Virus record (IMG/VR): IMGVR_UViG_3300038829_000263
Coordinates: 79,220 to 143,219 of that record
Source: a virus
DNA length: 64,000 nt
Strand: one strand, 5' to 3'
A program made the position numbers and the translations under genes. Under the pieces are notes generated by a model. The model did not search any database. It was not told where the DNA came from and worked only from the letters and a program-made list of their open reading frames with translations. Positions within the stretch are counted from its first letter, which is position 1; every line of letters begins with the position of its first letter. This document shows, in pieces, positions 11,060 through 61,149 of this stretch.

Positions 11060-12028
11060 GTGACGACGGCGACGCTCTACCGCGATGCGGACTACGGGGC
11101 CCTGGCCATCTACCCTGGGGCCAGCGGCCTCGTCACGATCGACCACGGGTTCCTGGCGGAGGACTTCGAAGCGGCCCTGTCCGTCCTCGAGCGCCACGGC
11201 AGGGGCGAGACGCAGCCCGGCCCGGGCGCGTGCCACTGGCGCCTGGAGAGCGCGCATCCCCTGCAGGTCATGGCCTCCGTCGATGCCGCGCTGCGCCTGC
11301 GCGGGTACGCCGACGACGCCCTTGGCGAACGCGCGATCCTGCGCGTCACGTCCCAGGAGGCCGCCCGGCCTGATTTCCCGGCGCCGGGAAAGTGGCCGTC
11401 CGGGGCCGACCTCGACGCACACGTTCGGGCGCTCATCACCCCAGCCCTGGCTGAGGCCGCGGGCGCACCCGTGCCTCAAGTGGCCGTGGCCGTCATGCCC
11501 CGCCCGAACTCGCAGGAGTCCGCCCCCTGGGCCCGCGCCCGGGCCCTGCTACCGGCCGGCGATGCCAAGGTCGTCCAGGAGCGCCTCCGGGCCGCCCTGG
11601 TCGGTCCCGTGCGCGAGATCCTGCGCCGGGCCACGGTGACCGCCTGCTCGCCCACCCTGCCCCATGGCCGGCTCCTGGCGGAGATCGCCCTCGCCATCCC
11701 CCGGGCCCTCTTGAACGAGTGGGAGAGCGCCATCCTCCCCGCCTTCCGGCCGGCCACGCACGGGTGGCGCCAGGTCTGGCTCAAGCGCGGCGAGAAGGAC
11801 GTCCCGGAGTCCTTGCTCTCCCGCGCCCGCGAGGGCGGGGCGATCGTGGGCGAGGCCCGACAGGGCCCGCGCGCTCTGGGCCTGCGCATCCCCTCGGCCA
11901 TGCCCGGGGACCACCTGGCGGACACGGCCTTCTCCGAGCGGCTCTGCTGGCTGACCGAGGCCCTGGGGGTGGAGCTCGTCGGCATCGACCCCTACCAGGA
12001 CTGGACCCCCGCCGCTGCCCACGAGTAG
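11060..12028 (+). CDS. Hypothetical protein
   Basis: GGGAGGG RBS before GTG 11060; codon bias. Confidence 0.7.
   Translation: MTTATLYRDADYGALAIYPGASGLVTIDHGFLAEDFEAALSVLERHGRGETQPGPGACHWRLESAHPLQVMASVDAALRLRGYADDALGERAILRVTSQEAARPDFPAPGKWPSGADLDAHVRALITPALAEAAGAPVPQVAVAVMPRPNSQESAPWARARALLPAGDAKVVQERLRAALVGPVREILRRATVTACSPTLPHGRLLAEIALAIPRALLNEWESAILPAFRPATHGWRQVWLKRGEKDVPESLLSRAREGGAIVGEARQGPRALGLRIPSAMPGDHLADTAFSERLCWLTEALGVELVGIDPYQDWTPAAAHE
11374..11391. repeat. Perfect 18-bp palindrome TTTCCCGGCGCCGGGAAA (dispersed motif)
   Basis: Self-reverse-complementary; variants at 30002, 43568 and 61053, weak copy at 1585. Confidence 0.8.
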
Positions 12029-12037
12029 CATGGGCGC

Positions 12038-15000
12038 ATGCCCATGCAGCCGCAAAACGAGACCTCCCGCGGCAGCCTTGCCTCCGTGACCCCGGGGTTC
12101 CTCGGGGCGACGCAGCGTGGGCGGCTCTCGGAGTTCGGCTGCGCGGGGTGCGGCTTCGCCATGCCGCGCTACCCCGGACGCTACCCCGCGGCCTGCCCCA
12201 AGTGCGGCGGGACGGTCGAGCGCCGCCAGGTGGCCGAGGCCGAGAAGATCCCCGGCGGGAAGGCGGCCGGCATGAAGCCGTCAGACTTCGACCCCGGGGC
12301 GCTCCTCGCCGGCATCCGGGTCGAGATGGAGCACACGAGCGACGCGGCCCTGGCGATGGAGATCGCGATGGACCACCTGGCGGAGGACCCGGCCTACTAC
12401 GACAAGCTCGCCACGATCCACCCGCCCGAGGAGGAGCCGGCCGAAGGCGGCGCGGGCTCGGGGTTCGTCGGCGCCCCGGACTACCCCTCCTGGCAAGGCG
12501 AGGGCGCCCCGATTCCGCTCGCCTCGCGCGCGTGCCGCATCCAGGCCCTCATCGAGGCCGGTGCGCAGGGGCGGTACCCCTACAACGCGGACCCCGACCG
12601 CTGCTCCCGCCCGCGCCGGCTCACGGCCGCCCAGGTCGAGGAGCTGTGCCCTGGCGGTGCGGCCGGCCTGCGGATGTTCCTCGAGCAGGGGAACCCCGAG
12701 AGCCGCTACTTCCGCATCGAGTCCCCGGCCGCCCCGGTGCTCATCTGCGAGTTCCACGTCGGCGGCGACCTCGTGATCTATGCGACCGTCGACCCCGTGA
12801 CTTACCTGGGCTTCGACCCGCGCCAGGAGCTCGTCTCGGAGTCCTCGCGCTGGCCGGGCACGGTCGACGTGCACGACCCCGGCCACGACATCATCGCGCG
12901 TATAGCCGGCGACAAGTTCCAGCTCGAGGACGTGAACACCTGGAAGGTCCACGGCTCTTGGCCGCTGTCCGACCTGATGAAGGACGACCCGATCAGGAAG
13001 GGCATCCGCCTGGCCGGGATCTTCCTGGACGCCTTCGTCGTCGAGCAGATCCTCCAGGCCGCCGGCGGCCGCTACCGCGAGTGGGCCAACCGCATCGTGG
13101 GCGCCATCCACGCGGCCGATGATGCGGCGCTCCGCCGGGGCCTGCGCGGCATGCGCGAGGGCGTGGACGAGGAGGTCATCAGGGCGTCGAAGGGCCTCGG
13201 TCTCTCGCGCGACGACCTCCCGCAGATCGACTCGGACAAGATCGACGACTTCCTGGAGTGGCTGCGCGTCCAGGGCATCGGCGTCTACCCGACCGAGGCC
13301 ACGGCGCGCCTTCTCCTGCCGTCCCAGGGCGAGCTGGAGTCCGACAAGATCGCCGCGATGGCGAAGGAGCCCGAGAAGCTCACGAAGGGGAAGATCATCA
13401 CGTCGGCCGACGGCTATGTGCTCGATGGCCATCATCGCTGGGCGGCCTACGTCGAGGTCTACCCCGAAGGCAACATGCCCGTCTGGCAAGTCCAGCTCGA
13501 CATCGTCACCCTCATCAACCTGGCGAAGCTGTTCCCAGGGGCGAAGGTGCGCGACATCTCCGGCAAGCGCGTGGCCGAGGCCGCTGACTCCAAGATCGCG
13601 ACGCGCCTTTCCTCGCTGGCCGCGCGACCGATGTGCCAGTTCAAGGGGCCTACCTGCGTCGGGCGCGCCTGGTGGAAGATGAACACGCCGCGCCCGTGGG
13701 GCGAGTTCGCCTGCTCGTCGTGCCTGACCGTCCTGGAGAAGGAAGCGGGCCTGGCGGAGGCCGTGAACCACGACATCGTGACGCGCGTCGTGAGCGCGAT
13801 GCGCCAGGCCAACTTGCAGCCGCGCTTCGAGGGCGGCATCGCTCCGACGCCCGACGTCGGCTACGTGCGCGCCATGGCCCTGGGCAACGTGGCGCTCGAG
13901 CTCGTGTTCGCGGGCGCGCGCCTCGTCTCCGCTTCGATCGTCCCCCCGGACGCCCCTGAGGACGACAAGGCTCAGATCCGCGCCGCGGTGATGGGCGTCC
14001 TCCCGAGCATGGCCGACATCGACTTGACCGAGAGCGCCGAGATGCCCTCGGAGCGCGAGCTGTCGGACCTGGCGACCGGCGCGACGGCAGTCACCAAGAG
14101 CGGCTCCGCGATCGAGTTCCGCTTCCCGCACGGCCGCTACGTTGAGATGGCCCACGACGCGATCCATGCGAAGTGGCCGCGCCTGGGCCTCCAGTTCTCG
14201 CAGTCGAAGAACGGGAACCCGGTCCTGATCGTCTCTCCGCCCTACGTGCCTCCGGTGCGCCGCCCGGACGCCCCGTTCTCGCTCGAGTTCTACGACGTGA
14301 GCCACGAGGGCGACGAAGCCCCCATCCTCCGTGACATCGCGGCCGCCGGCGGCAAGGTCGTGGGGCGGCACCGCTCCGGCGAGGAACTGTCGGTCGACAT
14401 CTCCGCCCCGGATGGCGAGGACGCGTTCATGGCGAAGTTCAAGCGCACGCGCTCGGCCTCGCGCCTGAACGAGGCGCGCCTGGAGGAGACGCGCTGGTCG
14501 CGCGCGGACCTGAACCGCCGGTTCAAGGGGCAGTACCACAACAAGGGCTTCGAGCTGCTCTACGGCGATGACCAGGCCGATGCCGGCGGCGGGCGCAAGC
14601 AGCCGCGCTACGCTGTCATCTCGACCTTCAAGTGGGTCGAGGCCCCGGTGAAGGGCGACTCCATCATGGACTACATGGACGAGATCGAGGCCGAGGCCCG
14701 CGACGCGATGATGGGGATGCGCGTCGTGGACGTGGGCGACGACTGGGCCGTGGTCGACATCGACTGGCGTGGGCTGGAGGAGGGCAACATGCCGGACGAC
14801 TACACTCCCTCCCAGGCCCGCGCCGCGATCCGCGGGATCATGGCCGCGCAGGAGAAGGGCGTCATCCCTGTCACGACCCAGGCCGTCGCGGCTTTCGGGT
14901 TCGGCAACCCGCGCTACACGGATCTCGCGCGCCAGGTGCTCTCGCGCCTCCAGGACCAGGGCTACGTCAGCTCCGACCGGGACCAGGGCTGGCATCTCTA

Positions 15001-16750
15001 CCAGTCGGCGAAGTACTGGCTGGCGGAGGCCGGCGGGAAGATCGTCCCCGGGGAAGGTCCCCAGGCCGGTGGCGGCGCCTGCCGCGCGGTCGGCGGCTTC
15101 CGGTTCGAGCTGGGCAAGTCGAAGAAGCGGAAGCCGCGGAAGGACGTGCAGCGCGCGATCCAGAACCGGCTCAACGCGAAGCGCGGGCTCGCGTCGCGCA
15201 TCTCGGCCGCGAAGAAGTGGCACCAGAGCTCCCAGGGCCGGCGCTACCACCGCGACCTCGGCCGCTACCTCCGCCAGGAGTCGTACTGGCCCCTGTTCGA
15301 GCGCGAGACGGAGTTCACGAACCGCTACCAGGCCCTCGGCCTCGCGGAGCCCGACCCGGCCACGATGTGCCTGGGCGCGTGTGAGGGCACGGGCATGGTC
15401 CCGGTGAACTACGCCCCTGCGAAGGCGGGTGGGATCGGCCCCGATCCCGACCTGACCTACAAGGCGGCCTGGGAAGCGGCCGAGGCCGCTAGCCCGGCGG
15501 AGGACGGATGGCACTTCGTGAAGTGCCTGGGCTGCGGCGGCTCGGGGAAGGCGACGCGCCTGAACGAGAGCCATCTGCCCCCGCTGGTAGGGTTGGACCG
15601 GGCTCGCCTGGCCGTCGAGGTGGAGCGCCGCTCGGGTCTGGACCGCGGACCGGCCGACGAGCGGCGGGTCCTCGCGGCCATCGCCGCGGTAGAAGCCGGC
15701 GACCTGAACAACCCTGACGCCGCCCTCAAGCGCCTGGTCTACGAGCTCTGGTTCTCGCTCAAGGACAACCCACTGCCTGGACTGCGCGAGGACGTGGGCG
15801 AGCGCACGGTCGATGACCGCTTCGACGAGTTCCTGCGCAAGCTCATCACGATCGAGTCGACGGACGTGCTGCAGGACGTCAACTTCACCGACGACGGCGG
15901 CATCTACCTCTTCTTCGACCCCTCGCTCTGCGGGCCCGACCTGGACGAGATCCTGATGGCGCTCCGTCAGGCCCAGGGCAGCGAGGGCGTCGAGATCGTC
16001 GGCACTCCCGACGAAGAGGACAGCGACTGGTGGGTGATCTTCTCCCCGCCGCCGACCGACTCGGCCGCGTGCGTCCCTGGCCAGGAGACACTGGACCAGC
16101 AGGCGGCGGGGGACGAGGTCCAGCCGGTCGATGGCGCGCCCGCGCCCCTGGCGAGCATGGCCGTGATGAAGCAGAACTCGGTCGACCGCCTGGCCATGAG
16201 CGTCGACATCCCGGCCCTGATGCAGGGCATCGATGGCGCCGAGGCGCAGAACGAGGCGACCGAGCGGGTCTACTACCGCATCAAGGTCGACGGCAAGTAC
16301 GTGGGTTCGCCCACGAACACCCGCACGGCGAACCCGAACCTCGCGGCGACCTGGGGGACGGACGAGCGCGACCAGGCCGAGAAGCTGGCCAAGCTCATCC
16401 CCGGCGCCGTCGTCGAGCCCTATCTCTACAAGAGCATGCTCAGCGAGTGCGGCGCGCACGGCCCTGTCATCCCCGAGGCGCTCCAGCCCCGCGAGGACGG
16501 CGTCGTCGTGCTCCTGTGGTCGGCCGTCGAGAGCCGCGTGCCCAGGTTCAAGGGCATTGCCTCGGGCGGCGCCGACCTTCACGGTCTCCGTGAGGCCGCT
16601 GCGCAGGGGAAGGGCACCCTGTTCCTCGTGCGTGCTCTGGGGGCCAGGGCCGCACGTGATACGATTCGTACTGGCAAGGGCCTGCACGAGATCGCACCCA
16701 ACGTCCTGACGAACGAGGTCGGCCTGGCGCACGTCCTCGCCGCGGAGTGA
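12038..16750 (+). CDS. Giant mosaic head-region protein (1570 aa): Zn ribbons, DUF5661-like, ParB/Srx-like, winged-helix, basic prohead-core-like and DnaJ-type Zn segments
   Basis: CAGC..CPKCG; GIRVEMEH...IAMDHLAEDPAYYDKL; LPQID...PSQGE...YVLDGHHRWAA; LSRLQDQGYV; CLGACEGTG..CLGCGGSG. Confidence 0.85.
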   Translation: MPMQPQNETSRGSLASVTPGFLGATQRGRLSEFGCAGCGFAMPRYPGRYPAACPKCGGTVERRQVAEAEKIPGGKAAGMKPSDFDPGALLAGIRVEMEHTSDAALAMEIAMDHLAEDPAYYDKLATIHPPEEEPAEGGAGSGFVGAPDYPSWQGEGAPIPLASRACRIQALIEAGAQGRYPYNADPDRCSRPRRLTAAQVEELCPGGAAGLRMFLEQGNPESRYFRIESPAAPVLICEFHVGGDLVIYATVDPVTYLGFDPRQELVSESSRWPGTVDVHDPGHDIIARIAGDKFQLEDVNTWKVHGSWPLSDLMKDDPIRKGIRLAGIFLDAFVVEQILQAAGGRYREWANRIVGAIHAADDAALRRGLRGMREGVDEEVIRASKGLGLSRDDLPQIDSDKIDDFLEWLRVQGIGVYPTEATARLLLPSQGELESDKIAAMAKEPEKLTKGKIITSADGYVLDGHHRWAAYVEVYPEGNMPVWQVQLDIVTLINLAKLFPGAKVRDISGKRVAEAADSKIATRLSSLAARPMCQFKGPTCVGRAWWKMNTPRPWGEFACSSCLTVLEKEAGLAEAVNHDIVTRVVSAMRQANLQPRFEGGIAPTPDVGYVRAMALGNVALELVFAGARLVSASIVPPDAPEDDKAQIRAAVMGVLPSMADIDLTESAEMPSERELSDLATGATAVTKSGSAIEFRFPHGRYVEMAHDAIHAKWPRLGLQFSQSKNGNPVLIVSPPYVPPVRRPDAPFSLEFYDVSHEGDEAPILRDIAAAGGKVVGRHRSGEELSVDISAPDGEDAFMAKFKRTRSASRLNEARLEETRWSRADLNRRFKGQYHNKGFELLYGDDQADAGGGRKQPRYAVISTFKWVEAPVKGDSIMDYMDEIEAEARDAMMGMRVVDVGDDWAVVDIDWRGLEEGNMPDDYTPSQARAAIRGIMAAQEKGVIPVTTQAVAAFGFGNPRYTDLARQVLSRLQDQGYVSSDRDQGWHLYQSAKYWLAEAGGKIVPGEGPQAGGGACRAVGGFRFELGKSKKRKPRKDVQRAIQNRLNAKRGLASRISAAKKWHQSSQGRRYHRDLGRYLRQESYWPLFERETEFTNRYQALGLAEPDPATMCLGACEGTGMVPVNYAPAKAGGIGPDPDLTYKAAWEAAEAASPAEDGWHFVKCLGCGGSGKATRLNESHLPPLVGLDRARLAVEVERRSGLDRGPADERRVLAAIAAVEAGDLNNPDAALKRLVYELWFSLKDNPLPGLREDVGERTVDDRFDEFLRKLITIESTDVLQDVNFTDDGGIYLFFDPSLCGPDLDEILMALRQAQGSEGVEIVGTPDEEDSDWWVIFSPPPTDSAACVPGQETLDQQAAGDEVQPVDGAPAPLASMAVMKQNSVDRLAMSVDIPALMQGIDGAEAQNEATERVYYRIKVDGKYVGSPTNTRTANPNLAATWGTDERDQAEKLAKLIPGAVVEPYLYKSMLSECGAHGPVIPEALQPREDGVVVLLWSAVESRVPRFKGIASGGADLHGLREAAAQGKGTLFLVRALGARAARDTIRTGKGLHEIAPNVLTNEVGLAHVLAAE

Positions 16751-16755
16751 TACCC

Positions 16756-19983: not shown

Positions 19984-20009
19984 ACGACGCCAGGGCGGTT
20001 TGGTACCCT
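19981..20009 (+). promoter_or_regulatory. Sigma70-like promoter TAGACG-N17-TACCCT (extended -10 TG)
   Basis: 17-nt spacer; upstream of gene 20031. Confidence 0.5.
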
Positions 20010-22379: not shown

Positions 22380-22389
22380 GGGCTTACTG

Positions 22390-26360: not shown

Positions 26361-27809
26361 GTGATCGCAACTCGTGAGATGGCGCGGCGGTCTCGGATGC
26401 TGACGGACCGCCTGGTCGACAAGCACAGGGCCCTGGTGAAGAAGTACGAGAGCTTCTCGCTCCCGGAACTCGACATCAAGGGACTCAACCCGATGGAGAT
26501 CCTGGAGACGGGTCCCAACCGGGAGAAGGACCCGCTCAAGGCGTACAAGTGCGCCCGCCTGATGGAGAACTTCGTCCAGGCGGCGATGCGCCAGGGCACG
26601 ATCGACGAGACCTCGCGCGCCTCGCTGCCCGCCTGGATCAAGTCGGGCCTCGCGCTGATCGCGGCCGCCCAGGCCGACGACCAGACCGACATGGTCATCT
26701 CCGACCAGCCGCTCTCCTCGCGCAACGGCCGCATCCACTACCTGGACGTGGTCAGCGAGCGCGCCAAGGGCCAGATCGGTGACCGGACGAAGCTGTTCGA
26801 CGCCCTGGCCGGGTTCCGCGGGACGCAGGACTTCACGTCCGAGAACATCGAGAACGAGCGCCTGTCCGGCCCCGGCGGCGCGACGTTCAACGTGTCCCTG
26901 GGCTACTCGCCCGTCATCCCGGGCACGCTGCTGCTGACCGACGGCACGCAGCAGGTCCGCGACGACCGCAACGGCAACCTGGTCGGCGACGTGGGCGCGC
27001 CCGGCGGCGGGTTCACGAACACGATCGACTACCTGACGGGCGCCGTATCGGTGCGCCTGGCGGTGGCGGCCGCGGGCGATGTCCGCGTCAGCTACCAGTA
27101 CAACATCGAGGCGTCGCTCGTCCTGCCCGAGTACGGCATCCTGCTCCGCGCCGAGGCAGTCCAGGCCCGGCCGCGCGCGCTCGGCGCGTCGTGGTCGCAC
27201 CAGGCCGTCATGGACTTCATGAACGACTACGGCATCGACGCCGAGCCGACCATCATCGAGGCCGGCGCGCGCCTGATCGCCCAGGAGAAGTTCAAGCACG
27301 TCGTCAACACCCTGCGCCAGAACGCGACGGGCGGCTCGATCCTGTTCGACAACACGGCCCCGACGGGCGTGTCGTACCGGGACCACCTCAAGACGTTCTC
27401 GCTCTACCTGAGCCGCCTCCAGGACCTCATCTGGGAGGCGACCCAGCTCGTCCGCCCGAACCGGATGGTGATCCACCCCTCGATCCTCTTCATCGTCGCG
27501 TTCCAGGACGGGTTCGAGGGCGTCAAGTTCGCCAACGACGGCATCGCCGGCCCGCGCTACGTCGGCCGCCTCGCGCGGCACGACATCGACGTGATCGCCG
27601 ACCCGACGTTCCCGCGCGACGAGTTCGTGCTCACCCACCGCGGCCAGGAGTTCGTCTCCACGGCGGCGGTCATGGGGACCTACGTGCCGCTCTACAAGAG
27701 CCCGGTGCACGTGCGCGGGTTCCGCAAGGACTTCGCGCTGCTGACCGAGTACGTGCTCAAGATCATCAACTCGAACCAGATCGGCACGGGCAAGGTCATC
27801 AACCTTTGA
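26361..27809 (+). CDS. Major capsid protein, T4 gp23 type, with inserted beta module
   Basis: QPLSSRNGRIHYLD and VQARPRALGASWSHQAVMDFMNDYGIDAE match gp23 blocks; follows the protease/scaffold gene. Confidence 0.92.
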   Translation: MIATREMARRSRMLTDRLVDKHRALVKKYESFSLPELDIKGLNPMEILETGPNREKDPLKAYKCARLMENFVQAAMRQGTIDETSRASLPAWIKSGLALIAAAQADDQTDMVISDQPLSSRNGRIHYLDVVSERAKGQIGDRTKLFDALAGFRGTQDFTSENIENERLSGPGGATFNVSLGYSPVIPGTLLLTDGTQQVRDDRNGNLVGDVGAPGGGFTNTIDYLTGAVSVRLAVAAAGDVRVSYQYNIEASLVLPEYGILLRAEAVQARPRALGASWSHQAVMDFMNDYGIDAEPTIIEAGARLIAQEKFKHVVNTLRQNATGGSILFDNTAPTGVSYRDHLKTFSLYLSRLQDLIWEATQLVRPNRMVIHPSILFIVAFQDGFEGVKFANDGIAGPRYVGRLARHDIDVIADPTFPRDEFVLTHRGQEFVSTAAVMGTYVPLYKSPVHVRGFRKDFALLTEYVLKIINSNQIGTGKVINL

Positions 27810-29549: not shown

Positions 29550-30002
29550 GTGTCGCAGGCACGCCGCAACATGATCGTGAGCCACGGGGGCGCGACCGGC
29601 CGGGGTGGGTTCATCCCGGCCGGCGGCGACGTGCGGCCCGACCTGGCACCGCACGTTCCAGGGGACATGGTCGTGAAGGACCCTCCGCCCAAGCCGGCAC
29701 AGGCCGCCCCGCCCCCAGCCCCTCCGGCGCCCCAGGCTGCGCCCCCGCCGGCCGAGGCCCCGGAGGTCAAGACCGAGGCCAAGAGCGAGCCCAAGGCCGC
29801 CGGCGGACCGCCCAAGGGCCCCCCGGTGCGCTCCACGCGCAAGGGCCCGGCGAGCCCCCTGACCCTGCCCACGTCGGCGGCCGAGGCGCGGGCCCTCAAG
29901 CCCGAGGCGGCGGCCACCATGGCCCAGACCCTGGGCGTGGACACGTCCGGCGTCCACGAGGACATCGTGGAGCGCCTGGTCGGGGAGCTGGGCCTGGAGT
30001 AG
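29550..30002 (+). CDS. Pro-rich protein with short C-terminal helical (SAP/HeH-like) domain
   Basis: PPPAPPAPQAAPPP linker; MAQTLGVDTSGVHEDIVERL; start uncertain (29550 or 29571). Confidence 0.65.
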   Translation: MSQARRNMIVSHGGATGRGGFIPAGGDVRPDLAPHVPGDMVVKDPPPKPAQAAPPPAPPAPQAAPPPAEAPEVKTEAKSEPKAAGGPPKGPPVRSTRKGPASPLTLPTSAAEARALKPEAAATMAQTLGVDTSGVHEDIVERLVGELGLE

Positions 30003-30019
30003 TTCCCGGCCCCAGGAAA
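30002..30019. repeat. Copy of dispersed palindrome (GTTCCCGGCCCCAGGAAA), intergenic, over the neck-gene RBS region
   Basis: 15/18 match to the 11374 palindrome. Confidence 0.6.
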
Positions 30020-41648: not shown

Positions 41649-43640
41649 GTGGCTGACGGCCTGGAAAACTCGCTGACGTTCTTCCTGGAGGCCGAAGACC
41701 TGGCCTCGGGACTCGTCACGGACGCCCAGGCCGCGATGGACGCCAGCGCCGAGGGGGTGGAGAACACCCTGCTCGACCTCACGACCTCGCTCGAGGAGGC
41801 CACGGGCGTCATCGACGAGGGCGCGGCTGACGTGGCGCTGGGCGTCGGCCAGATCGCGGCTGGGTTCCAGGAGGCGCTGACGCTGGCCCTGGCCGGCATC
41901 GACGACATCACCGAGACGACGCTCGACCTCGTGGAGGCCACGGACGACAACAGGGACTCCCTGGGCGCCATGAACCTGCTCCTGGGGGAGACGACCGAGC
42001 AGGTGATGGTCGCGGAGGAGGTCACCGAGCAGTGGACCCTCACGCTGGGCGCCCTGGGCACGGCCGGCGTGGCGGGCGTCTCGGCCGTCGCGGGCGCCGT
42101 GACCGGCCTCGGCAAGGGCCTCGTGTCGGCCGGCAACACTCTGGACAACTTCGGCAGCCGCGCCGGCGCCCTGGGAGGGATCGTCAAGACCGTCAGTACT
42201 CTCGTGACCGGCCTGGGCGCCACGCTGGGCGGGGCGGGGCTCGTCGGGTTCCTCCTCGGGCCCCTGGCACCGATCCTCGGCCTTCTGACGCCCATCTTCG
42301 ACTTCCTGATGGAACAGCTCGCGCCGGTGTTCGACATCATCGGCGCCGCGATCGAGAACGCCTTCGCGCCGTTCCAGTTCATTCTGGAGACGGTGATGCA
42401 GTCCTTGATGCCCGTGATCCAGGACGCGTTGAACCCACTCGTCGGCATCCTCACGGCTATGGCCATCCAGGTCGGGGCGATGCTCCAGAACCTGCGCCTG
42501 GGCGACGGCGGCTTCATCGCCTCCATCGTGGAGACGATGGCCGAGCTTGTGCCCGTCGTGATGCGGGTCGTGCAGGCCCTGGCCGAGGCCGCCCAGCGCG
42601 TGCTCCCGGCGATCGGCAAGATGGTCACGGCGTTCCTGCCCGTCGTCGTGAAGCTCGTGGAGATCCTGGCGGATGCCTTCATCGGCCGGATCGAGGCGTT
42701 CACGGACGTCATCGTCGAGGTCGGCCCCCTCCTGGCCACGACCTTCGCCGACCTCCTGATGGCGCTCATCCCGCTGATCGAGCCCCTGACGAAGCTCGGG
42801 ACCCTGCTCATCAAGCACGTGTTCGCCCCGGCCGTGATCGCGGCCGTCCAGCTCCTCGCAGCCGGGATCCAGGCTCTGACGCCGGTCATCGAGGAAGTCT
42901 CGTCCGTCCTGGGGGCCCTCGTCGAGATGGTCAACGAGGCCCTGGCGGACTTCTTCGGGCCCAAGCTCGGGAAGTACGTCTCGGACTTCAACGTCCTGTT
43001 CATCGAGCCGATCAAGGCCGCCGTGCAGGGCGTGATCGACTACGCCACGCAACTCGTCAACGTGTTCCGGATGGAGGGCGTGTTCGAGGGCGTGAAGAAG
43101 ATCGTCGTCGACTACTTCGGGTTCCTGGGGAGCGCCATCACCAAGATCCTGGAGCTCGTCGGCCTGGCCGAGGAGAAGGCCGAGGGGGAAGGCGCTGGCC
43201 TGGCGGAGGCCGCCGCGGAGCAGCAGGCGGCGGGTGTCTCGCCCGAGGTCGTGGGCGCGCTCGAGGCCCAGTCGCAGGGTGACCGCGATGAGTTCAACAA
43301 ACGCATGCGAGCGCTCAAGGCCAAAGGCGGCGGCCTGGCTGAGGGCGGCATCGCCGTCGAGCCGACGACGCGCCTGTTCGGCGAGGCCGGCCCGGAGGCC
43401 GTGCTGCCGCTCAAGGCGGACGTGATCCAGGAGTTCGTGGCGCCGGTGCTCAAGGACATGGAGCTACCGGGCATGGATGAGGCCGTCGAGCTCCTGCAAG
43501 GGATCCTCGGCGCGCTCCGCGGCACTCTCACTGTCCGCGGCATGGCCGGCGAGGAGCGCGGGCAGGCTTTCCCGGCGCCAGGAAAGCCCGAGGCGGCGGA
43601 CGATCGGGGCATCGGCATGCTGGGCTTCGTCGCGGGGTAA
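41649..43640 (+). CDS. Tape measure protein
   Basis: Long amphipathic helical repeats; C-terminal LAEGGIAVEPTTRLFGEAGPEAVLPL. Confidence 0.85.
   Translation: MADGLENSLTFFLEAEDLASGLVTDAQAAMDASAEGVENTLLDLTTSLEEATGVIDEGAADVALGVGQIAAGFQEALTLALAGIDDITETTLDLVEATDDNRDSLGAMNLLLGETTEQVMVAEEVTEQWTLTLGALGTAGVAGVSAVAGAVTGLGKGLVSAGNTLDNFGSRAGALGGIVKTVSTLVTGLGATLGGAGLVGFLLGPLAPILGLLTPIFDFLMEQLAPVFDIIGAAIENAFAPFQFILETVMQSLMPVIQDALNPLVGILTAMAIQVGAMLQNLRLGDGGFIASIVETMAELVPVVMRVVQALAEAAQRVLPAIGKMVTAFLPVVVKLVEILADAFIGRIEAFTDVIVEVGPLLATTFADLLMALIPLIEPLTKLGTLLIKHVFAPAVIAAVQLLAAGIQALTPVIEEVSSVLGALVEMVNEALADFFGPKLGKYVSDFNVLFIEPIKAAVQGVIDYATQLVNVFRMEGVFEGVKKIVVDYFGFLGSAITKILELVGLAEEKAEGEGAGLAEAAAEQQAAGVSPEVVGALEAQSQGDRDEFNKRMRALKAKGGGLAEGGIAVEPTTRLFGEAGPEAVLPLKADVIQEFVAPVLKDMELPGMDEAVELLQGILGALRGTLTVRGMAGEERGQAFPAPGKPEAADDRGIGMLGFVAG
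43568..43585. repeat. Copy of dispersed palindrome (TTTCCCGGCGCCAGGAAA)
   Basis: Flanks extend the symmetry (GGC...GCC); 43563-43584 is identical to 61048-61069. Confidence 0.8.
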
Positions 43641-51047: not shown

Positions 51048-51232
51048 CGCCTGCCGCATGGGCGCGCCGGTCCATTACCCTGGGAGGAGGGTCCGGGCGG
51101 CCGTAGCGGCCAAAACCGTCACGCGTAAGATATTGCTAGGATATAGCTTAGCTAGCGAACCCCCGCTCGATGACAAGGAGATGATGGGCGCCCGCCTGAG
51201 CTACCGGTGCGGAGCCCCCGCAGGAGGCCCCG

Positions 51233-52501: not shown

Positions 52502-52504
52502 GCC

Positions 52505-53026
52505 ATGGCCGACGTGCTGGAGCCGGGACAACTCTTCCTCTTCGACCGACCCGCGCAGGGGACGCCTGTGCTCTCGTCGGAGATCCGCGACAACCTCCAG
52601 GCCGTCGCGCGCACGAACCTGTCGTCTGACCCCGCGTTCCCGGCGAACCCGCGCACGGGCATGCTGCGCTTCCTCACCGAGGACCCGCTCAACTACAAGC
52701 TGCAAGCCTGGCTCGAGCAGTCGGGCGGCGGCGCGGCCTGGCGGGACCTCCTCCAGTACGTGAACCTGGGCATCGCGGCGCCGGCCAAGCTCGTGTTTGA
52801 CATCACCGTGCCGCCCCTGGTCAACTCGTGGACCATTGACCACAACCTGGGGTCCTACCCGCTGGTGCAGCCCTTCAACTCGGCGGGCTACCAGTTCGGA
52901 GTCCTGGGGCAGGGCTTCGTCCCGGCGGCGAACCAGTGCCTCATCCAGCAGGTCACTCTCAACCGCGTGGTCATCACATTCGCGCCGGCGACGTTCCCCA
53001 CGGGGTTCGTCGTGATCGTGGGCTAA
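52505..53026 (+). CDS. Tail fibre-associated protein
   Basis: SSEIRDNLQA; WTIDHNLGSYPLVQ. Confidence 0.7.
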   Translation: MADVLEPGQLFLFDRPAQGTPVLSSEIRDNLQAVARTNLSSDPAFPANPRTGMLRFLTEDPLNYKLQAWLEQSGGGAAWRDLLQYVNLGIAAPAKLVFDITVPPLVNSWTIDHNLGSYPLVQPFNSAGYQFGVLGQGFVPAANQCLIQQVTLNRVVITFAPATFPTGFVVIVG

Positions 53027-53037
53027 GGGAGGCGGGC

Positions 53038-53922: not shown

Positions 53923-53931
53923 GAGGACTAC

Positions 53932-55455: not shown

Positions 55456-55475
55456 CGCGCGAGACAGGCGGAAGC

Positions 55476-56882
55476 ATGCGGTGGATGTGGCTGGTCGCGC
55501 TCCTGGCGGGTTGCGCCTGCGAGCGAGAGCACAGGTTCGTCGTCCCTCCTGCGACGTCCGAGCCCTGGGACCGTACCTTCCTCGTGGGCCTCGATCCCAA
55601 CTCCGTCACGACGGCCGCCCTGGCGTCGCACGTGCGCGCGGCCCAGGCCAGCCACGACACCTACCAGGAGGTGCTCGGGCAGACGTGGCAGGCCACGAGG
55701 ACGATCCCGGCGCCCGACTCGCCGGCCCAGGCCCTCCCCGCCCTGCCCGATCGCTACGGGAGCGGCGGGGACACGCTCCTGTTCACGGGCTTCTCCGTCG
55801 CGGCCTCGGCCTTCCACTACGGCGTGGGCCAGCCGGACGTGGAGAGCCAGCACGACCTGGAGCAGCGCCTCAAGCGCCAGCTCGGCGGCCTGCACCTGTT
55901 GACCAACTGCACGGGCACGCCCGGCGTCCTGGCGCGCTGCGCCGCGCCGGCGGCCGAGGCAGGGCGCTTCGCGAGCCGGCAGAGCGGCGACTTCACGGGG
56001 CGGAGCCCGGCCGGCCTGTTCGACCCCTGGGGCGCGCCCTACCCGGAGGTCATCTACTACACGCGCGCGACGAAGGACCAGCTCACGGGACTAGTTCTGG
56101 GCCTGGCTGCGACGCTCGAGTTCGGGTCCCCGTCCTTGCGCGACGCGGCCGCCCAGATCGGCGTGGACGTGTTCATGCATCTGGAGCGGCACGCCTGGAG
56201 GATCCGCGACCACGAGGGGAAGAACGACACGAGCGCCGACGATGTGGACGACATGCTCAAGGCGGCCGTGCTCGCGATGGCCTGGCGCGCCCACGTGCGC
56301 CTTGCGCGCCCGCGGGCCCCGGAGATCGAGGCGCTCTACCGCCAGGAGCTCGAGCAGTTCACGCAGCGCGCGTGGATCCTCTCCCAGGGGGACCGCTTCA
56401 ACAACTTTCAGCAGTACTACGGCTTCTCGCTGCGCTCCGCGCGCGCCCTGACCATCTGGCTCCTCGACCCCGCGGCGCGGGAGGACATGGCGGCCTGGCA
56501 CGCGGCGTTCGTGTGGCGCTTCACGCGCTTTCACTCGAACGCCTGGCACGCGGCGGTGCGGGCCGTCATGGTCGACGACCCGGACGCGCGCCTCCAGGCC
56601 GTGCTCGCGCTCAAGGACGCCTCGCTGCGGCCATCGCGGAACTTCTCATCCCCGTTCCACGGGCAGGAGGAGGGTCCGGGGTTCTTCTGCGCGGCCTTCA
56701 ACGACACGGAGGCGTTCGTCGTATCCCCGCGCCTGCGCGAACCCGCGGGCTACTGGACGTGGCAGCACGCCCCTTGGTCCGTGGGGCATGGGCCGCCCGA
56801 CCACCAGGGCCCGCAGGAGGTCTCGGGCCTGGACCTGGTCCTGCCCTACTGGCTCCTGCGCGTGCGGGGTGGCATCCCGTGA
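55476..56882 (+). CDS. Lipoprotein, probable helical-barrel enzyme
   Basis: Signal peptide MRWMWLVALLAG|C; GDT..FTG, TKDQLTG, SGLDLVLPYW. Confidence 0.7.
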   Translation: MRWMWLVALLAGCACEREHRFVVPPATSEPWDRTFLVGLDPNSVTTAALASHVRAAQASHDTYQEVLGQTWQATRTIPAPDSPAQALPALPDRYGSGGDTLLFTGFSVAASAFHYGVGQPDVESQHDLEQRLKRQLGGLHLLTNCTGTPGVLARCAAPAAEAGRFASRQSGDFTGRSPAGLFDPWGAPYPEVIYYTRATKDQLTGLVLGLAATLEFGSPSLRDAAAQIGVDVFMHLERHAWRIRDHEGKNDTSADDVDDMLKAAVLAMAWRAHVRLARPRAPEIEALYRQELEQFTQRAWILSQGDRFNNFQQYYGFSLRSARALTIWLLDPAAREDMAAWHAAFVWRFTRFHSNAWHAAVRAVMVDDPDARLQAVLALKDASLRPSRNFSSPFHGQEEGPGFFCAAFNDTEAFVVSPRLREPAGYWTWQHAPWSVGHGPPDHQGPQEVSGLDLVLPYWLLRVRGGIP

Positions 56883-57259
56883 CGGCCATTCGCTGGCGGG
56901 ATGTGGACGCTGCTCTGCGGTGGCGCCTGCGCCAGGGGACCCTGCTCAACGGCTGCGGGGCGAAGGGGCACTGGCTCGACCCGCCGGACTGGCTGTTCAC
57001 GGCCTCGTGCGATCACCACGACTTCAATTACCTCCTGGGCGGAACGGAGGCCGATCGCGCGAAGGCCGACGGGCAGTTCTACTCGGCCATGCTCGAGGAC
57101 GCGGCGAAGGCCCCCTGGTGGAAGCGCGCCTGGTACCGCGCGATGGCCTGGACCTACTACCGCGCCGTGCGCCGCTGGGGCGCGAAGTTCTTCCACCCCG
57201 CGGCGGAGCCCAGGTCCCGCGAAGACCTGGAGGCCCTGCTGCGAGATGCTGGCGTGTGA
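56879..57259 (+). CDS. Phospholipase A2-like protein
   Basis: NGCG..FTASCDHHDFNY..RAKADGQF..YYRAVRRWG (His-Asp dyad). Confidence 0.7.
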   Translation: MTAIRWRDVDAALRWRLRQGTLLNGCGAKGHWLDPPDWLFTASCDHHDFNYLLGGTEADRAKADGQFYSAMLEDAAKAPWWKRAWYRAMAWTYYRAVRRWGAKFFHPAAEPRSREDLEALLRDAGV

Positions 57260-57280
57260 CGTGCGCTAGGATGCCCTGCG

Positions 57281-57949
57281 ATGACCGACTCGCCCCCGGC
57301 CCCGCCGCCTTCCCTCCTGCACCCTGACATTCCTGCCCTGCGCCTCTACCGCGGCGCCCTGTCGCTGGCCGACTGCCAGGACATCACGACCCGGTTCGAG
57401 CTGGATCCGCGGAAGGCGCCCGGACGCGCCGGGATCTACGGCACGGTGATGCCCCAGAAGCGGACGATCGACTTGCAGATCAGCGGGGACGACCCGACCT
57501 GGAAGGATGCGGACGACAAGATCGCGAGCGTCATCACGAAAACGATGCGCGCCTACATGGCGGACGTGCCTTGCTTCCGCGTGACGTTCATCAACGGCCT
57601 GACGCATCCCGACACGGGCTACCAGTTACAGCGTTACCTGCCGAATGGCCGCGATGGCTTCGACTGGCACGCGGATGCCGTGCCCCACCACACGCGCATC
57701 CTGGCGGCGATCGTCTACTTGAACGACGTCGAGAAGGGCGGGGAGACGGAGTTCGATTACCACGGCAAGTCGGTCGTCGTGAAGCCCGAGGCCGGCGCCG
57801 TCCTCTGGTTCCCCTGCAGCTTCGAGTACGTGCACCGCGGAAGGACCCCCGAGAGCGGGCCGAAGTACATCGCCACGACGTTCCTGGTCTACAACCGCGT
57901 CCCGCACCCGGAGACGCCTCCCCTCCCCGCGGCCGCCGCCGTGCAGTAG
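57281..57949 (+). CDS. 2OG-Fe(II) oxygenase (prolyl-hydroxylase-like)
   Basis: WHAD..YLNDVEKGGETEF..HRG..KY. Confidence 0.9.
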   Translation: MTDSPPAPPPSLLHPDIPALRLYRGALSLADCQDITTRFELDPRKAPGRAGIYGTVMPQKRTIDLQISGDDPTWKDADDKIASVITKTMRAYMADVPCFRVTFINGLTHPDTGYQLQRYLPNGRDGFDWHADAVPHHTRILAAIVYLNDVEKGGETEFDYHGKSVVVKPEAGAVLWFPCSFEYVHRGRTPESGPKYIATTFLVYNRVPHPETPPLPAAAAVQ

Positions 57950-57972
57950 GATCGAGGGCCGCGGAGGCGGAG

Positions 57973-58224
57973 ATGCGCAAGGCGGCCCTGGTCTTGATCC
58001 TCGTCCTGGCGGGGTGCCGCTGTGCCTCGCGGGACGACCTGCTCCGGCAGCTTCGCGACAACCTCGCGAACGACATAGGCCCCAAGTACAGGGCCTACAT
58101 CGACGCGGACCCGCGCCTTGACGAGAGGGCCAAGGACATCCGTTACGGCGTCGTCGAGAACTCCATCGAGGCGATCGACATGGTCCTCCCGCCCGAGACG
58201 GCCCCCGTGGAGAGCGCCCGGTGA
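57973..58224 (+). CDS. Small lipoprotein
   Basis: MRKAALVLILVLAG|C. Confidence 0.75.
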   Translation: MRKAALVLILVLAGCRCASRDDLLRQLRDNLANDIGPKYRAYIDADPRLDERAKDIRYGVVENSIEAIDMVLPPETAPVESAR

Positions 58225-58688
58225 AGCTGGCCGACGAGCTCCGCTCCGCCGCAGGCCCGGCGATCCGGCAAGCGTTCGATGACTCCGTCGACCAGTTCCT
58301 GGGCGCCATCGGCGGCCTCGTCCAGACGACGCACCACCCGAAGGTCGCGGGCCTCTACAAGAGCGCGGCCGACTACCGCTACCAGGCCCTCACGGCCGCG
58401 ACGCCCGAGGACGCGGCGCTCGCCCTCGACCTGTGCGGGTCGGCCGTGCGCAGCATCAAGACCCTGCTCATCGCTGAGCGCATCGTGGCCGAGGACAAGA
58501 TGGCGCAGGCGGTCGCCGACATCGCCTGGGCGATCCTGGACACCGCGGCCAAGGTCGCGAAGGGCGCGCTGCAGGCCGTCGTGGCCGGGGCCGTTCAGGG
58601 CCTCGTCACCGGACTCACGGGCGGCGCCGCGCCGGCCGTCGGTGGCGCAGCCAGCTCGATCATCGCGGAGGTGTTCCGTGGGAAGTAG
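58221..58688 (+). CDS. Hypothetical helical protein with hydrophobic Gly/Ala-rich C-terminus
   Basis: GTGA-coupled; codon bias. Confidence 0.7.
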   Translation: MKLADELRSAAGPAIRQAFDDSVDQFLGAIGGLVQTTHHPKVAGLYKSAADYRYQALTAATPEDAALALDLCGSAVRSIKTLLIAERIVAEDKMAQAVADIAWAILDTAAKVAKGALQAVVAGAVQGLVTGLTGGAAPAVGGAASSIIAEVFRGK

Positions 58689-59316
58689 GCTCGTTCTCCT
58701 GGCGCTGCTGCTCTGCACGGGTTGCCAGGCGGTCAAGGATCGTGCCTCGGAGTACCTGTCGGAGGTCGCCGTCGAGCAGATCACGCGCGCCGTGGATCGG
58801 AAGCTGGAGGACCGCGGCCTCAACGTCGCCATTCTGCGGGACCTCGCCGACACCGACAGGAGCGGCGGCGTCTCAGCCGGCGAGGTGACGGCGCTCGCGC
58901 GCTCGACCGTGATCGACCTCGTGGAGTTGAAGGCAGAGCAGGCAGGCGAGAAGGGCCGGGCCGACCTCGAGCAGAAGCTGGCGGCCCTGGCCGGCGCCAA
59001 GGACCTGGATGAGCTGCGCAGCATCGCGGCTGAGCAAGGCACGTTCGGCAAGGGCACGGCCATGTCGGTCGTGGGCCTGCTCATCGCGGGCCTCGTCAAC
59101 CGCATCTTCTCCGCGAACAAGCACGCCAAGACGCGCGAGGAGCTCGCGGTGGCGAAGACTGAGACCGACCAGCGGCTGGGGCGCCTGGAGCAGCTCGTGG
59201 GCATCGACCTGAACAGCGACGGCGTGATCGGCCCGGCGCTGGCCGCGCGCGTTGCCCCGCCGGTTCCTGGACCGGCCGCCCCGGCGCCTTTGGGCGGTGG
59301 AAGCGCACCGGCCTGA
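58678..59316 (+). CDS. Lipoprotein with EF-hand-like loops and a TM segment
   Basis: LLALLLCTG|C; DTDRSGGVSAGE; DLNSDGVIG; AMSVVGLLIAGLV. Confidence 0.7.
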   Translation: MGSRLVLLALLLCTGCQAVKDRASEYLSEVAVEQITRAVDRKLEDRGLNVAILRDLADTDRSGGVSAGEVTALARSTVIDLVELKAEQAGEKGRADLEQKLAALAGAKDLDELRSIAAEQGTFGKGTAMSVVGLLIAGLVNRIFSANKHAKTREELAVAKTETDQRLGRLEQLVGIDLNSDGVIGPALAARVAPPVPGPAAPAPLGGGSAPA

Positions 59317-59469
59317 AACGATAAACCTGGCGCAAGGCGCGGCCTTCGCGTCCTCTCCAGGGACGTGGAAGTCCCCCCGTTGAAACGGTCCGGGGCCGCG
59401 GGCGTACATGCCTGTGAGGGCGCCATCTGTCGCTGGGGCCCACAGATCGGCCATCCGCGCGTCGTGGAC

Positions 59470-59498
59470 TAGGCAAAGCGAGGAGGGCAGGGTAATAT
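59470..59498 (+). promoter_or_regulatory. Candidate promoter TAGGCA-N17-TAATAT for the replication operon
   Basis: Intergenic, 17-nt spacer. Confidence 0.45.
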
Positions 59499-59618
59499 CC
59501 CCAGCGTCGCGCGAGGGCGGCCGACCGGCCCCATCGCTGAAACGAACGACTGCAGGCGGCCGCAGGGCGCCCGCACGGGCTGGGGGGACGGCATGCCACG
59601 ACGGCAAGAGGGGACCTA

Positions 59619-60485
59619 GTGCACGCCTGGCTCGTCGTGCACGCGCCCCCGGCGCCCGGGGCCCCTGAACCGCTGACGACGCTCGTCTCGCCGGCGGAGC
59701 CCGGGGCGGCCGACATGGCCCTGGTGGCCATGGCCGGGCACATGGAGCCGGTCATCGGCGTCCGCCGGCACTTCCTGGACTACCCCGAGATGCCGCCTGA
59801 CCCCGTGGTGGGGGTCGAGATGGTCCGGGCCCGCTACCGCGACTGCGCGCGGTGCCATCTCTGCGCCTCGCGCAACAACATCGTCCACGTCCGGGGCAAC
59901 CTCTACTCGCCCGTTGTCGCGATCGGTGAGGGTCCAGGCCGGGACGAGGACATGCGCGGCATTCCCTTCGTCGGCCGGAGTGGCCGCCTCCAGGACGAGC
60001 TGTTCCGCGAGGCCGGCATCGACCCTGAGAAGGACATTGCTTGGCTGAACGCCGTCGGTTGCCGTCCCTGTGCTTCGCGCTTCACGGGCGACAGGCCGCC
60101 GACCCTCGTCGAGAAGATCGCGTGCTCGGAGCGGACGCTCATGCTGCTGCGGTCCCTGCGACCGCGCGTGGTGCTCTTGCTGGGCCAGGCGGCGACTACC
60201 ATGTTCTTCGCGGAGCCCCCACCGATCTATCGGTGGCTCGGTCCCCTCACGCCACCGGACGACCCGCGCGACTGGATCCTCGTCGCGCACATCCCGCACC
60301 CGGCCGGACTCCTGCGCGCGATCGGCGGCGAGCACTTCTACGGGAAGTACAAGACGGGCGTCCTGTTCTACCGGGCGCTCAAGGCAGCGCTCCCAGGGTG
60401 GCAGAAGGTCGCGCGCTGGCGCTTCGGCCTCCACTACCTGAACGGGACCGTGGCGGCCGCAGGTAAGGCGGAGGACGGCGCGTGA
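59619..60485 (+). CDS. udg: Uracil-DNA glycosylase family 4 (Fe-S)
   Basis: CARCHLC; IGEGPGRDED..GIPFVGRSG; NAVGCRP; HP. Confidence 0.92.
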   Translation: MHAWLVVHAPPAPGAPEPLTTLVSPAEPGAADMALVAMAGHMEPVIGVRRHFLDYPEMPPDPVVGVEMVRARYRDCARCHLCASRNNIVHVRGNLYSPVVAIGEGPGRDEDMRGIPFVGRSGRLQDELFREAGIDPEKDIAWLNAVGCRPCASRFTGDRPPTLVEKIACSERTLMLLRSLRPRVVLLLGQAATTMFFAEPPPIYRWLGPLTPPDDPRDWILVAHIPHPAGLLRAIGGEHFYGKYKTGVLFYRALKAALPGWQKVARWRFGLHYLNGTVAAAGKAEDGA

Positions 60486-60661
60486 AGTTCATCAAGGTGC
60501 GCAAGATCGGGGAGAAGAGGTTCGCGTTCCTGACGCCCAAGGGCGGCGAGACGCGGCTCCGCATTCACGCGGCCATGATCCCGCCCGAGAAAGTCGAGGA
60601 GGAGCTCGCGAAGCTCCGGCGCGAGAACCCGGAGTTCGAGTTCAAGGCGGTGGGGCGGTGA
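60482..60661 (+). CDS. Small hypothetical protein (59 aa)
   Basis: GGAGG RBS; GTGA overlaps at both ends. Confidence 0.7.
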   Translation: MKFIKVRKIGEKRFAFLTPKGGETRLRIHAAMIPPEKVEEELAKLRRENPEFEFKAVGR

Positions 60662-61149
60662 ACGAGCGCCTGGTCTCCGCCGGCCGCTACCTGGCGCAGG
60701 TCGTCGCCGCGCGCAATCTCTATCGCCTGCTCTACGAGGAGGCCCTGGCGAACGCGGGCGACGGGACCGAGGCGGCCCTGGAGAGCATGAGGCCCTACGC
60801 ACAGGTCGGCCGAGAGCTGCTCGTCTCGGCCACGACAGTCCGCCAGGACTTGGCCGTGCTCGAGCGCCTGCAGTGGGTGCGCGTCGAAGGTGTGCGCCTG
60901 CGCCTCCTGGGGCACCGGCGGGCCGGGTGCGTCTACCTCCTGGCGGACGAGGCCGCCGAGCGTCAGACCGGCCAGCGCATCCTCGTCTCGCGCGTCGTGC
61001 TGGAGGGTTTGTGGCGGCCGGCCGAAGCCCCGCCCATCCTCCCCTCCCAGGCTTTCCCGGCGCCAGGAACGCCGCTGGCGCCCGCGCCGACCCCGCGCGT
61101 CCTGGGCGGCGCCCTGCGAGAGTGGCGCGCGCGGGAGGGCGAGGCGTGA
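60658..61149 (+). CDS. Winged-helix protein (possible replication initiator)
   Basis: YAQVGRELLVSATTVRQDLAVLERLQWV; lies upstream of the loader and helicase. Confidence 0.65.
   Translation: MNERLVSAGRYLAQVVAARNLYRLLYEEALANAGDGTEAALESMRPYAQVGRELLVSATTVRQDLAVLERLQWVRVEGVRLRLLGHRRAGCVYLLADEAAERQTGQRILVSRVVLEGLWRPAEAPPILPSQAFPAPGTPLAPAPTPRVLGGALREWRAREGEA
61053..61070. repeat. Copy of dispersed palindrome (TTTCCCGGCGCCAGGAAC)
   Basis: 22-nt identity with 43563-43584. Confidence 0.8.

Follow-up and report, generated by a model that had tools for sequence, protein, structure and literature searches.

Sets of binding sites that consist of one short word dispersed over a whole replicon are known from plasmids (KorB, PMC11790492), from bacterial chromosomes (ParB and Noc, PMC7383237) and from temperate phages (stoperators, PMC9283540; N15, PMC7205306). 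The present study deals with an 18-bp palindrome, TTTCCYGGCGCCRGGAAA, that recurs in a stretch of 64,000 nucleotides of phage DNA (the window), which corresponds to positions 79220-143219 of the IMG/VR record IMGVR_UViG_3300038829_000263 (hereafter G000; 143,219 bp, 71% G+C, obtained from a groundwater metagenome). We assign a probability of roughly one half to the view that these palindromes are docking sites for one sequence-specific dimeric DNA-binding protein, which would most likely be encoded by the phage itself. In the literature searched, no regular, selected lattice of such sites was found within genes of a T4-like lytic phage that lacks a ParB-type gene, and the 16-mer core of the word gave no match there either.

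On the IncP plasmid RK2, the operator OB of KorB is a dispersed palindrome of 13-18 bp, of which some copies lie at promoters while others are distal or intragenic, and the KorB dimer acts on transcription locally as well as at a distance (PMC11790492). The phage genome resembles this arrangement of dispersed palindromic operators in that nine strong sites were found, with an array beside a promoter-like cassette and others inside genes. However, KorB is a ParB-family CTPase clamp with the partners KorA and IncC, whereas no ParB_N or ParA-type protein was detected in the phage, and neither a KorA-type partner nor a KorB-family clamp was found there with PF02195, with hidden Markov models (HMMs) of ParB or by Pfam comparison of 96 small proteins. 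The setting differs from RK2 as well, because here the sites are placed 13-28 kb apart on the 143-kb genome of a T4-like phage and include one phased triple array.

Noc of B. subtilis provides the second close comparison, since its palindromic Noc-binding sites (NBS) are scattered through chromosomal genes (PMC7383237, PMC8429893). The outer half-sites TTTCCC/GGGAAA of the phage palindrome are letter-identical to those of the NBS consensus ATTTCCCGGGAAAT. However, the phage site contains six extra central bp (GGCGCC), which would bring the half-sites onto different helical faces for a Noc-type dimer. Hence, the phage word does not belong to the NBS, which are 14-16-bp sites read by a ParB paralogue: its half-sites are 6 bp further apart, and no such paralogue was found in the phage. 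The parS consensus TGTTNCACGTGAAACA (16 bp, PMC7383237) is not matched either, as the 18-mer shares only TTTC/GAAA with it.

The stoperators of Cluster A mycobacteriophages likewise represent one short site that is present in many copies genome-wide, beyond the controlled promoter (PMC9283540, PMC6550527). However, stoperators are asymmetric (13-14 bp), are bound by a monomeric repressor, are oriented with transcription and occur much more densely, in temperate phages, whereas the sites of G000 are 18-bp dyads that are sparse, evenly spaced and show their asymmetric position in both orientations on the coding strand. In phage N15, a few inverted repeats of the genome (IR1-4) serve the one DNA-binding protein SopB (PMC7205306). 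N15 differs in possessing the sopAB partition genes and in living as a plasmid; neither feature was seen here. The SopB sites are reportedly dispersed among the genes of that phage.

Sites of the palindrome in the window and in the whole genome

In the window, TTTCCYGGCGCCRGGAAA was found at five sites (9 strand matches) compared with 0.11 expected, a count that was reached in 0/100 dinucleotide shuffles. In window coordinates, these sites are:

11374-11391: perfect 18-bp palindrome TTTCCCGGCGCCGGGAAA, followed by GTG, in a gene of 345 amino acids (aa) without assigned function, where it encodes DFPAPGKW
43568-43585: site TTTCCCGGCGCCAGGAAA in the tape measure gene, 72 nt ahead of its stop codon, encoding QAFPAPGKP
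61053-61070: site TTTCCCGGCGCCAGGAAC in the 163-aa gene 60658-61149, 96 nt ahead of its stop codon, encoding QAFPAPGTP
30002-30019: site GTTCCCGGCCCCAGGAAA, in the 26-nt gap ahead of the head-tail adaptor gene
1585-1602: weak copy with three mismatches, inside a UvrD-type helicase gene

An earlier inspection of the letters alone, made without database searches (the sequence-only reading), had placed palindromes at these five positions, where they indeed lie, the one at 11374-11391 being perfect. It had also claimed that two copies share 22 identical nucleotides, which is true of the copies at 43568 and 61053 with CAGGCTTTCCCGGCGCCAGGAA in common, and that three copies impose the peptide FPAPG on unrelated proteins, as can be seen from the three translations given above. 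The gene labels could be confirmed for the tape measure protein (by PHROGs), for the head-tail adaptor behind the site at 30002 and for the UvrD-type helicase at 1585. Compared with the pattern proposed in that reading, the number of mismatches is 0 at 43568-43585, 1 at 61053-61070, 2 at 30002-30019 and 3 at 1585-1602. The right half of the site at 30002-30019 overlaps a likely ribosome-binding site, and the weak copy at 1585-1602 could be of chance origin (about 1.3 such coding sites are expected).

The complete genome contains nine sites with at most two mismatches to TTTCCYGGCGCCRGGAAA and four weaker ones, in genome coordinates:

27478, 55724, 68819, 68852, 68885, 90593, 109221, 122787 and 140272: sites with at most two mismatches
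5926, 13909, 35397 and 80804: weaker sites with three mismatches

Among them, the sites at 27478 and 55724, the triple 68819/68852/68885 and the weaker ones at 5926, 13909 and 35397 are the further copies that the proposal of the sequence-only reading called for. In a de novo word count, TTTCCCGGCGC ranked as the second strongest over-represented word of G000 behind the early-promoter cassette, and the word TTTCCYGGCGCCRGGAAA represents the sole repeated near-palindrome family of this genome.

The sites at 68819, 68852 and 90593 are symmetric. At the single asymmetric position, the + strand shows T..G at 13909-80804 and C..A at 109221-140272 and 5926. This split into two arcs has a chance probability of about 0.09 and is mentioned as a curiosity only; one switch point between the orientation arcs is the largest gene-free gap, near 10 kb. 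An RNA hairpin was considered as the selected structure and rejected, because the coding strand shows both T..G (wobble) and C..A (mismatch) and no U-tract follows the sites.

Selection on the DNA word and even spacing

The sites inside genes were evaluated with a codon-preserving shuffle, in which synonymous codons were permuted within each gene while the protein sequences and the codon usage of each gene were kept. Five coding sites with at most one mismatch were observed compared with 0.023 expected, and nine with at most three mismatches compared with 1.65 expected; neither count was reached in any of the 300 shuffles. Since the shuffled sequences contained 0.02 such sites versus the five observed, selection targets the DNA word and not the peptide, and a peptide-level explanation of the sites is excluded by this test. 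The shuffle had been proposed in the sequence-only reading, and its outcome leaves the idea of selected binding sites standing.

The spelling of the sites makes use of codons that are rare in the phage, namely AAA (1.8% of Lys), GTT (3.5% of Val), GCT (4.1% of Ala), CCT and CCA (9.9% and 4.7% of Pro) and GGA (5.9% of Gly). For example, the site at 43568-43585 in the tape measure gene is written with GCT, CCA and GGA. The Walker-A loop GVPGAGKS of an AAA_33 kinase-like protein (L003:15697-16194; genome 55697-56194) accommodates the site at 55724, and this loop is spelled GTT CCT GGC GCC GGG AAA, in which GTT, CCT and AAA are very rare. The strong coding sites thereby occupy two reading frames and appear as FPAPGK or VPGAGK, both of which are Pro/Gly-rich peptides that proteins tolerate.

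Moreover, the sites are spread more evenly than expected by chance. When the triple array is treated as a single locus, neighbouring strong loci (seven in total) are separated by 13.1-28.2 kb, with P = 0.004 for the smallest gap (13.1 kb) and P = 0.0045 for the coefficient of variation. Inclusion of the weak sites results in 11 loci, with gaps of 7.9-20.3 kb and P = 0.0002.

In view of these data, it is hardly credible that the palindromes have no function and arose by chance or as a by-product of a shared peptide or of mutation bias. Such an origin would be in line with the weak copies (3-4 mismatches), which are only about 2-5 times above expectation, and with the overlap of one site with a ribosome-binding site. 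However, the observed count was reached in 0/100 dinucleotide and 0/300 codon-preserving shuffles, and the rare codons, the two reading frames, the even spacing and the intergenic triple array all speak against it.

The assumption of a dimeric binder is thus well supported, albeit indirectly, by the DNA-level selection, the dyad symmetry, the even spacing and the helically phased array described below. The sequence-only reading had interpreted the palindromes as sites for a dimeric DNA-binding protein, for example of the parS or stoperator kind. The dimer-binding core of this interpretation receives indirect support, whereas the memberships in parS or stoperators do not stand, since ParB_N, ParA and integrase matches were all missing from the phage.

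The triple array beside a probable late promoter

Three full sites stand in tandem with a 33-bp period at L004:8816-8903 (L004 is a locus of G000; 2.7 copies according to Tandem Repeats Finder), which is 10.4 kb to the left of the window and starts 30 bp past the stop codon of the last early gene. This array measures 88 bp, and 119-aa and 269-aa Zn-ribbon proteins are encoded shortly ahead of it. Since 33 bp correspond to three helical turns, all three sites would be exposed on the same helical face. They are followed by the 50-mer of G000 that is richest in AT (70% AT; the runner-up has 56%). Beyond it, a second tandem array with a 34-bp period is situated at L004:9018-9093, the units of which bear the half-site AAAGTG in one orientation, resulting in three phased half-sites downstream of the AT-rich stretch. 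This array is followed by an orphan open reading frame (ORF) of 148 aa (ORF148), the large terminase gene, an intein-like gene and the portal gene. The AT-rich stretch is contained in a cassette that consists of TTGCWWGGATATAGC, then TTA..AGC and then a 31-bp block around CTCGATGACAAGGAG. The cassette was found exactly twice in G000, both times in gaps ahead of + strand late genes, and the two copies are identical at 30/31 positions of the 31-bp block:

L004:8939-9009 (outside the window): cassette copy 1, bracketed by the triple palindrome array and the half-site array
51133-51187 of the window (130.3 kb of the genome), + strand: cassette copy 2, no palindrome nearby

Because it is duplicated and shows a conserved leader and a Shine-Dalgarno sequence, the cassette is probably a late promoter with its leader. 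A scan of the array region for sigma-70 promoters and terminators found none, and Rfam returned only sub-threshold microRNA noise for it. The distinction between early and late genes is based on sigma-70-like cassettes (TTGCGC-N17-TAATAT), which are confined to 5-65 kb of G000 and hence indicate that the left half is early/middle while the right half, including the window, is late. Nearly all genes, as called by the G+C content at third codon positions (GC3), are located on the + strand. According to the predicted proteins, G000 has the gene set of a T4-like lytic myovirus, with a Gp20-type portal, a large terminase of family PF27249 followed by the stand-alone intein-like gene, prohead protease S77, a Gp23-type capsid protein, sheath and baseplate J; PHROGs matched the tape measure protein and the head-tail adaptor encoded after the 30002 site.

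Phased repeats that flank a central AT-rich region directly upstream of terminase genes are reminiscent of pac, cos and iteron loci. In SPP1 pacL/pacR, the P1 pac hexamers, the lambda cosB R-sites and the lambda ori iterons, the repeats are confined to one locus. Here, in contrast, copies of the word are additionally spread as a lattice over the whole genome, and what lies between the repeats is a promoter-like cassette that exists in duplicate. In a packaging explanation, the triple array and the three downstream half-sites would be the two arms of a pac/cosB-like site that is bound by a small-terminase-like protein, for example ORF148, and the single sites would be secondary, uncleaved ones. 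The array indeed immediately precedes ORF148 and the genes for the large terminase and the portal, the repeats are helically phased on both sides of the central region in a way that resembles the pac and cosB sites just named, and no small terminase was otherwise identified among the phage genes. Nevertheless, we regard this explanation as rather unlikely, because the duplication of the central element at 130.3 kb without repeats is better understood as a promoter cassette than as a unique cut site, in the relatives no ORF separates the core from the terminase gene, no homologue of ORF148 was found anywhere, and the contig ends of relatives show no pile-up at one position. Moreover, packaging gives no reason for the DNA-level selection and even spacing of at least nine extra sites.

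The relatives identified via the terminase (47-63% identity) are uncultured contigs only, and the closest ones show 62-63% identity (P0002 and P0003). Relatives with a 47-55% identical terminase contain the same core upstream of the terminase gene, in which CACGATGAC comes after an AT-rich stretch and mostly precedes a G-run, and the core of each relative is flanked by short repeats of its own. In four of them (L046, L049, L050, L055), a different palindrome, CAGGTACCTG, occurs within about 40-110 bp of the core. This word is dispersed too, with three copies in a 22.7-kb record, three in a 47-kb record (14 and 17 kb apart) and two in 11.6 kb, at Markov expectations of 0.001-0.04. Judged from these records, the arrangement is common to at least two lineages, with different words, and is not universal in the clade. 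An exact-pattern scan of viral contigs gave single scattered matches only, and a metagenome scan for site pairs at the array spacing, for which the pattern was too loose, found no array among the listed loci. In two relatives (L055:2713-9747, L049:3606-5174), the gene directly upstream of the palindrome and the terminase encodes a giant protein (2344 aa in L055), which ends in a winged-helix-like domain; a counterpart was not detected in G000.

Candidate readers and the same word in bacteria

The search for the binding protein started from the ParB family. ParB_N (PF02195) had no match with E <= 0.01 in six frames of the full 143-kb record, while controls matched in 11/14 genomes, and HMMs of canonical ParB and of a ParB paralogue gave a best E > 1 against all phage ORFs. 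Likewise, a ParA-type ATPase (PF13614) was not matched in six frames, the Pfam tallies contained no CbiA/AAA_31, and tyrosine integrase (PF00589) had no match in six frames of G000, serine recombinases not being included in this search. The sequence-only reading had pointed to a ParB-like block in a 1570-aa protein of the window; this suggestion had to be dropped, since DUF5661 was the only Pfam match of that protein. Altogether, none of the protein-level tests placed the system in the ParB family.

These results also bear on the possibility that the palindromes are stoperator-like sites of an immunity repressor or belong to a ParABS partition system of a plasmid-prophage. The record carries the IMG/VR label 'provirus', and dispersed intragenic sites are known from the Cluster A stoperators (PMC9283540, PMC6550527) and from the SopB repeats IR1-4 of N15 (PMC7205306). 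However, neither a tyrosine integrase nor a ParA-type ATPase nor ParB_N was found, Pfam revealed no repressor-type helix-turn-helix (HTH) among the 96 small proteins, the sites are dyad-symmetric and not oriented with transcription, and the genes are those of a T4-like lytic myovirus. Hence, we consider this explanation very unlikely.

Two orphan proteins encoded close to sites are candidates for the binder, and nothing more. The first is located in the window:

60658-61149, + strand: P0047, 163-aa orphan and candidate binder with weak winged-helix signals and one site in its own 3' part

P0047 is a real gene according to GC3. Its Pfam matches, HTH_11 (E 0.021) and HTH_DeoR, are sub-threshold, its language-model neighbours (0.94-0.95) belong to HTH_24/MarR_2, HTH_36 and Rep-type clusters (P1 RepL, RP-C, RepA_N), and no homologues were found. 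The sequence-only reading had named it a winged-HTH protein, which is plausible from the language-model neighbours, whereas Pfam supports only the sub-threshold HTH_11 match. The copy in its own gene is the link of P0047 to the sites, and nothing beyond that was found. The second candidate, ORF148 (L004:9065-9511) beside the array, resembles a winged helix by eye and matched no Pfam or PHROGs family. No mutual similarity was found among ORF148, P0047 and the winged-helix-like domain at the C-terminus of the giant protein of relatives.

P0047 is also the candidate initiator in an explanation of the array as a replication origin, in which the palindromes would serve a Rep-type winged-helix initiator as iterons beside an AT-rich unwinding element, and the dispersed copies would titrate the initiator or pair with it. 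It is consistent with an origin that the phased repeats accompany the most AT-rich stretch of the genome, that the neighbours of P0047 include the HTH_36, P1 RepL, RP-C and RepA_N clusters and its gene contains a site, and that the cumulative GC skew turns at about 66-68 kb. However, a second copy of the AT-rich element is present at 130.3 kb, in a cassette whose conserved leader and Shine-Dalgarno sequence would rather be expected of a promoter, the change in skew coincides with the boundary between early and late genes, the evidence for P0047 is weak, and titration leaves the even spacing without a reason. An origin is therefore unlikely in our opinion. Packaging or replication signals had been listed in the sequence-only reading, and for the triple array, which lies outside the window, such a role is possible; the packaging and the origin explanations may each account for the array, but not for the lattice.

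If the palindromes are docking sites for a dimeric protein, the phage would keep a sparse and even lattice of single sites along its chromosome, one per 13-28 kb. Given the tight packing of the genome, they would be written into genes via rare synonymous codons, at positions where a Pro/Gly-rich peptide is tolerated. The array at L004:8816-8903 might represent a high-occupancy locus, at which the putative protein would nucleate cooperatively and act on the early-to-late/packaging switch by controlling or insulating it. When docked at the single sites, it might mark or organise the rest of the chromosome, as KorB does from OB or Noc from NBS.

Several results weigh against this view. Regulation alone would leave the even spacing unexplained, and organisation alone would leave the promoter-side array unexplained. 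The second copy of the cassette is free of palindromes, so late promoters do not generally include these sites. A dispersed palindrome family is missing altogether from the nearest large relative, G005 (118 kb, 95% complete), and the positions of the sites are not syntenic between G000 and its relatives. At the protein level, no HTH family was found by Pfam among the 96 small phage proteins, PHROGs gave nothing for the genes neighbouring the sites, ORF148 has no homologue among 1.8 billion representative proteins, and its AlphaFold single-sequence model was unusable (predicted local distance difference test score of 43).

As a tentative generalisation, large lytic phages might use a ParB-independent way of chromosome marking, in which a dimeric protein reads a gene-embedded lattice and an array couples organisation or self-marking to the late switch and packaging, with a specificity that is re-set between relatives (TTTCCYGGCGCCRGGAAA versus CAGGTACCTG); in a variant, the site of a host Noc-like paralogue would be mimicked and the protein hijacked. 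The nucleation locus of the lattice would then be at the early/late boundary beside the terminase genes, and the word differs between subclades, with its location next to a conserved control element unchanged. If the lattice is read by a single protein, this would offer a new handle on how large phages organise, time or recognise their DNA, and it would account for a layer of constraint on the synonymous sites of phage genes, the recoding of the Walker-A loop included.

The variant with a host protein relates to the occurrence of the same word in bacteria. A scan of one bacterial genome per species gave mostly single matches, and two patterns stood out. First, in a phylum of bacteria with small genomes, a 2.7-Mb metagenome-assembled genome (MAG) contains nine copies on nine contigs (L190-L198; consensus ATTTTCCCGGCGCCGGGAAAAT), and another MAG has seven copies within 430 kb. 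The multi-copy bacteria have canonical parS beside canonical parB (L188, two parS) and the 18-mer elsewhere, and they encode a second, divergent ParB_N protein (L189:823-1782, minus strand). In a sample of 151 genomes of this phylum, the paralogue is present in 8/8 word-bearing genomes compared with 54/151 overall, and the three multi-copy genomes hold the three closest paralogues (100, 77 and 50% identity). Hence, a ParB-family protein is the likely reader of the word in these bacteria, and the combination of word and paralogue probably represents a Noc-like system outside Firmicutes.

Accordingly, the phage might copy the site of a host chromosome organiser, e.g. a ParB paralogue of the Noc kind, and recruit that protein. 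The identical 18-mer, which is dispersed and multi-copy in these unrelated bacteria, its association with the paralogue, the half-sites equal to the Noc site of B. subtilis (PMC7383237) and the absence of a recognisable binder of its own from the phage are compatible with such a borrowing. However, at about 52% G+C these bacteria are unlikely hosts of a phage with 71% G+C, no high-G+C genome with many copies was found in the bacterial scan, the AT flanks of the bacterial consensus are missing from the phage sites, and the relatives use a different palindrome. Taken together, we judge a borrowed host protein to be distinctly unlikely.

Second, a 30-bp perfect palindrome that contains the 18-mer, GACCATTTTCCCGGCGCCGGGAAAATGGTC, is located inside DinD-like/Bro-N genes, where it encodes DHFPGAGKMV, or directly beside them. 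The bacteria concerned, from many phyla, belong to Bacteroidales, Fibrobacter, Desulfuromonadales, Saccharimonadia, Myxococcales and Gammaproteobacteria, and the copies at DinD-like genes are:

L138:4514, L137:4917, L182:6398 and 7049, L105:2999, L112:2140, L109:7851 and L075:970: GACCATTTTCCCGGCGCCGGGAAAATGGTC

The palindrome is 100% conserved while the DinD-like proteins are 50-70% identical, which indicates a constraint at the nucleotide level. The DinD-like Bro-N proteins have no homologue in the phage. In Bryobacteraceae (L159, L173, L184, L185, L150), several copies of the word occur within an identical longer repeat with the same 10-nt flanks, which is probably a repeated element or gene family.

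Two further observations concern the phage genome itself. The Pfam tallies for its first 79 kb (loci L001-L004) include GTP cyclohydrolase I, QueC, two PAPS_reduct and GATase as well as Dam, UDG, cpYpsA, DUF1643 and DUF6283, a gene set that suggests a DNA modification of the 7-deazaguanine type by the phage. Finally, a second over-represented palindrome, GTACCGGTAC, was found in three copies compared with 0.011 expected:

6882, 108235 (window 29016) and 112046 (window 32827) of the genome: copies of GTACCGGTAC

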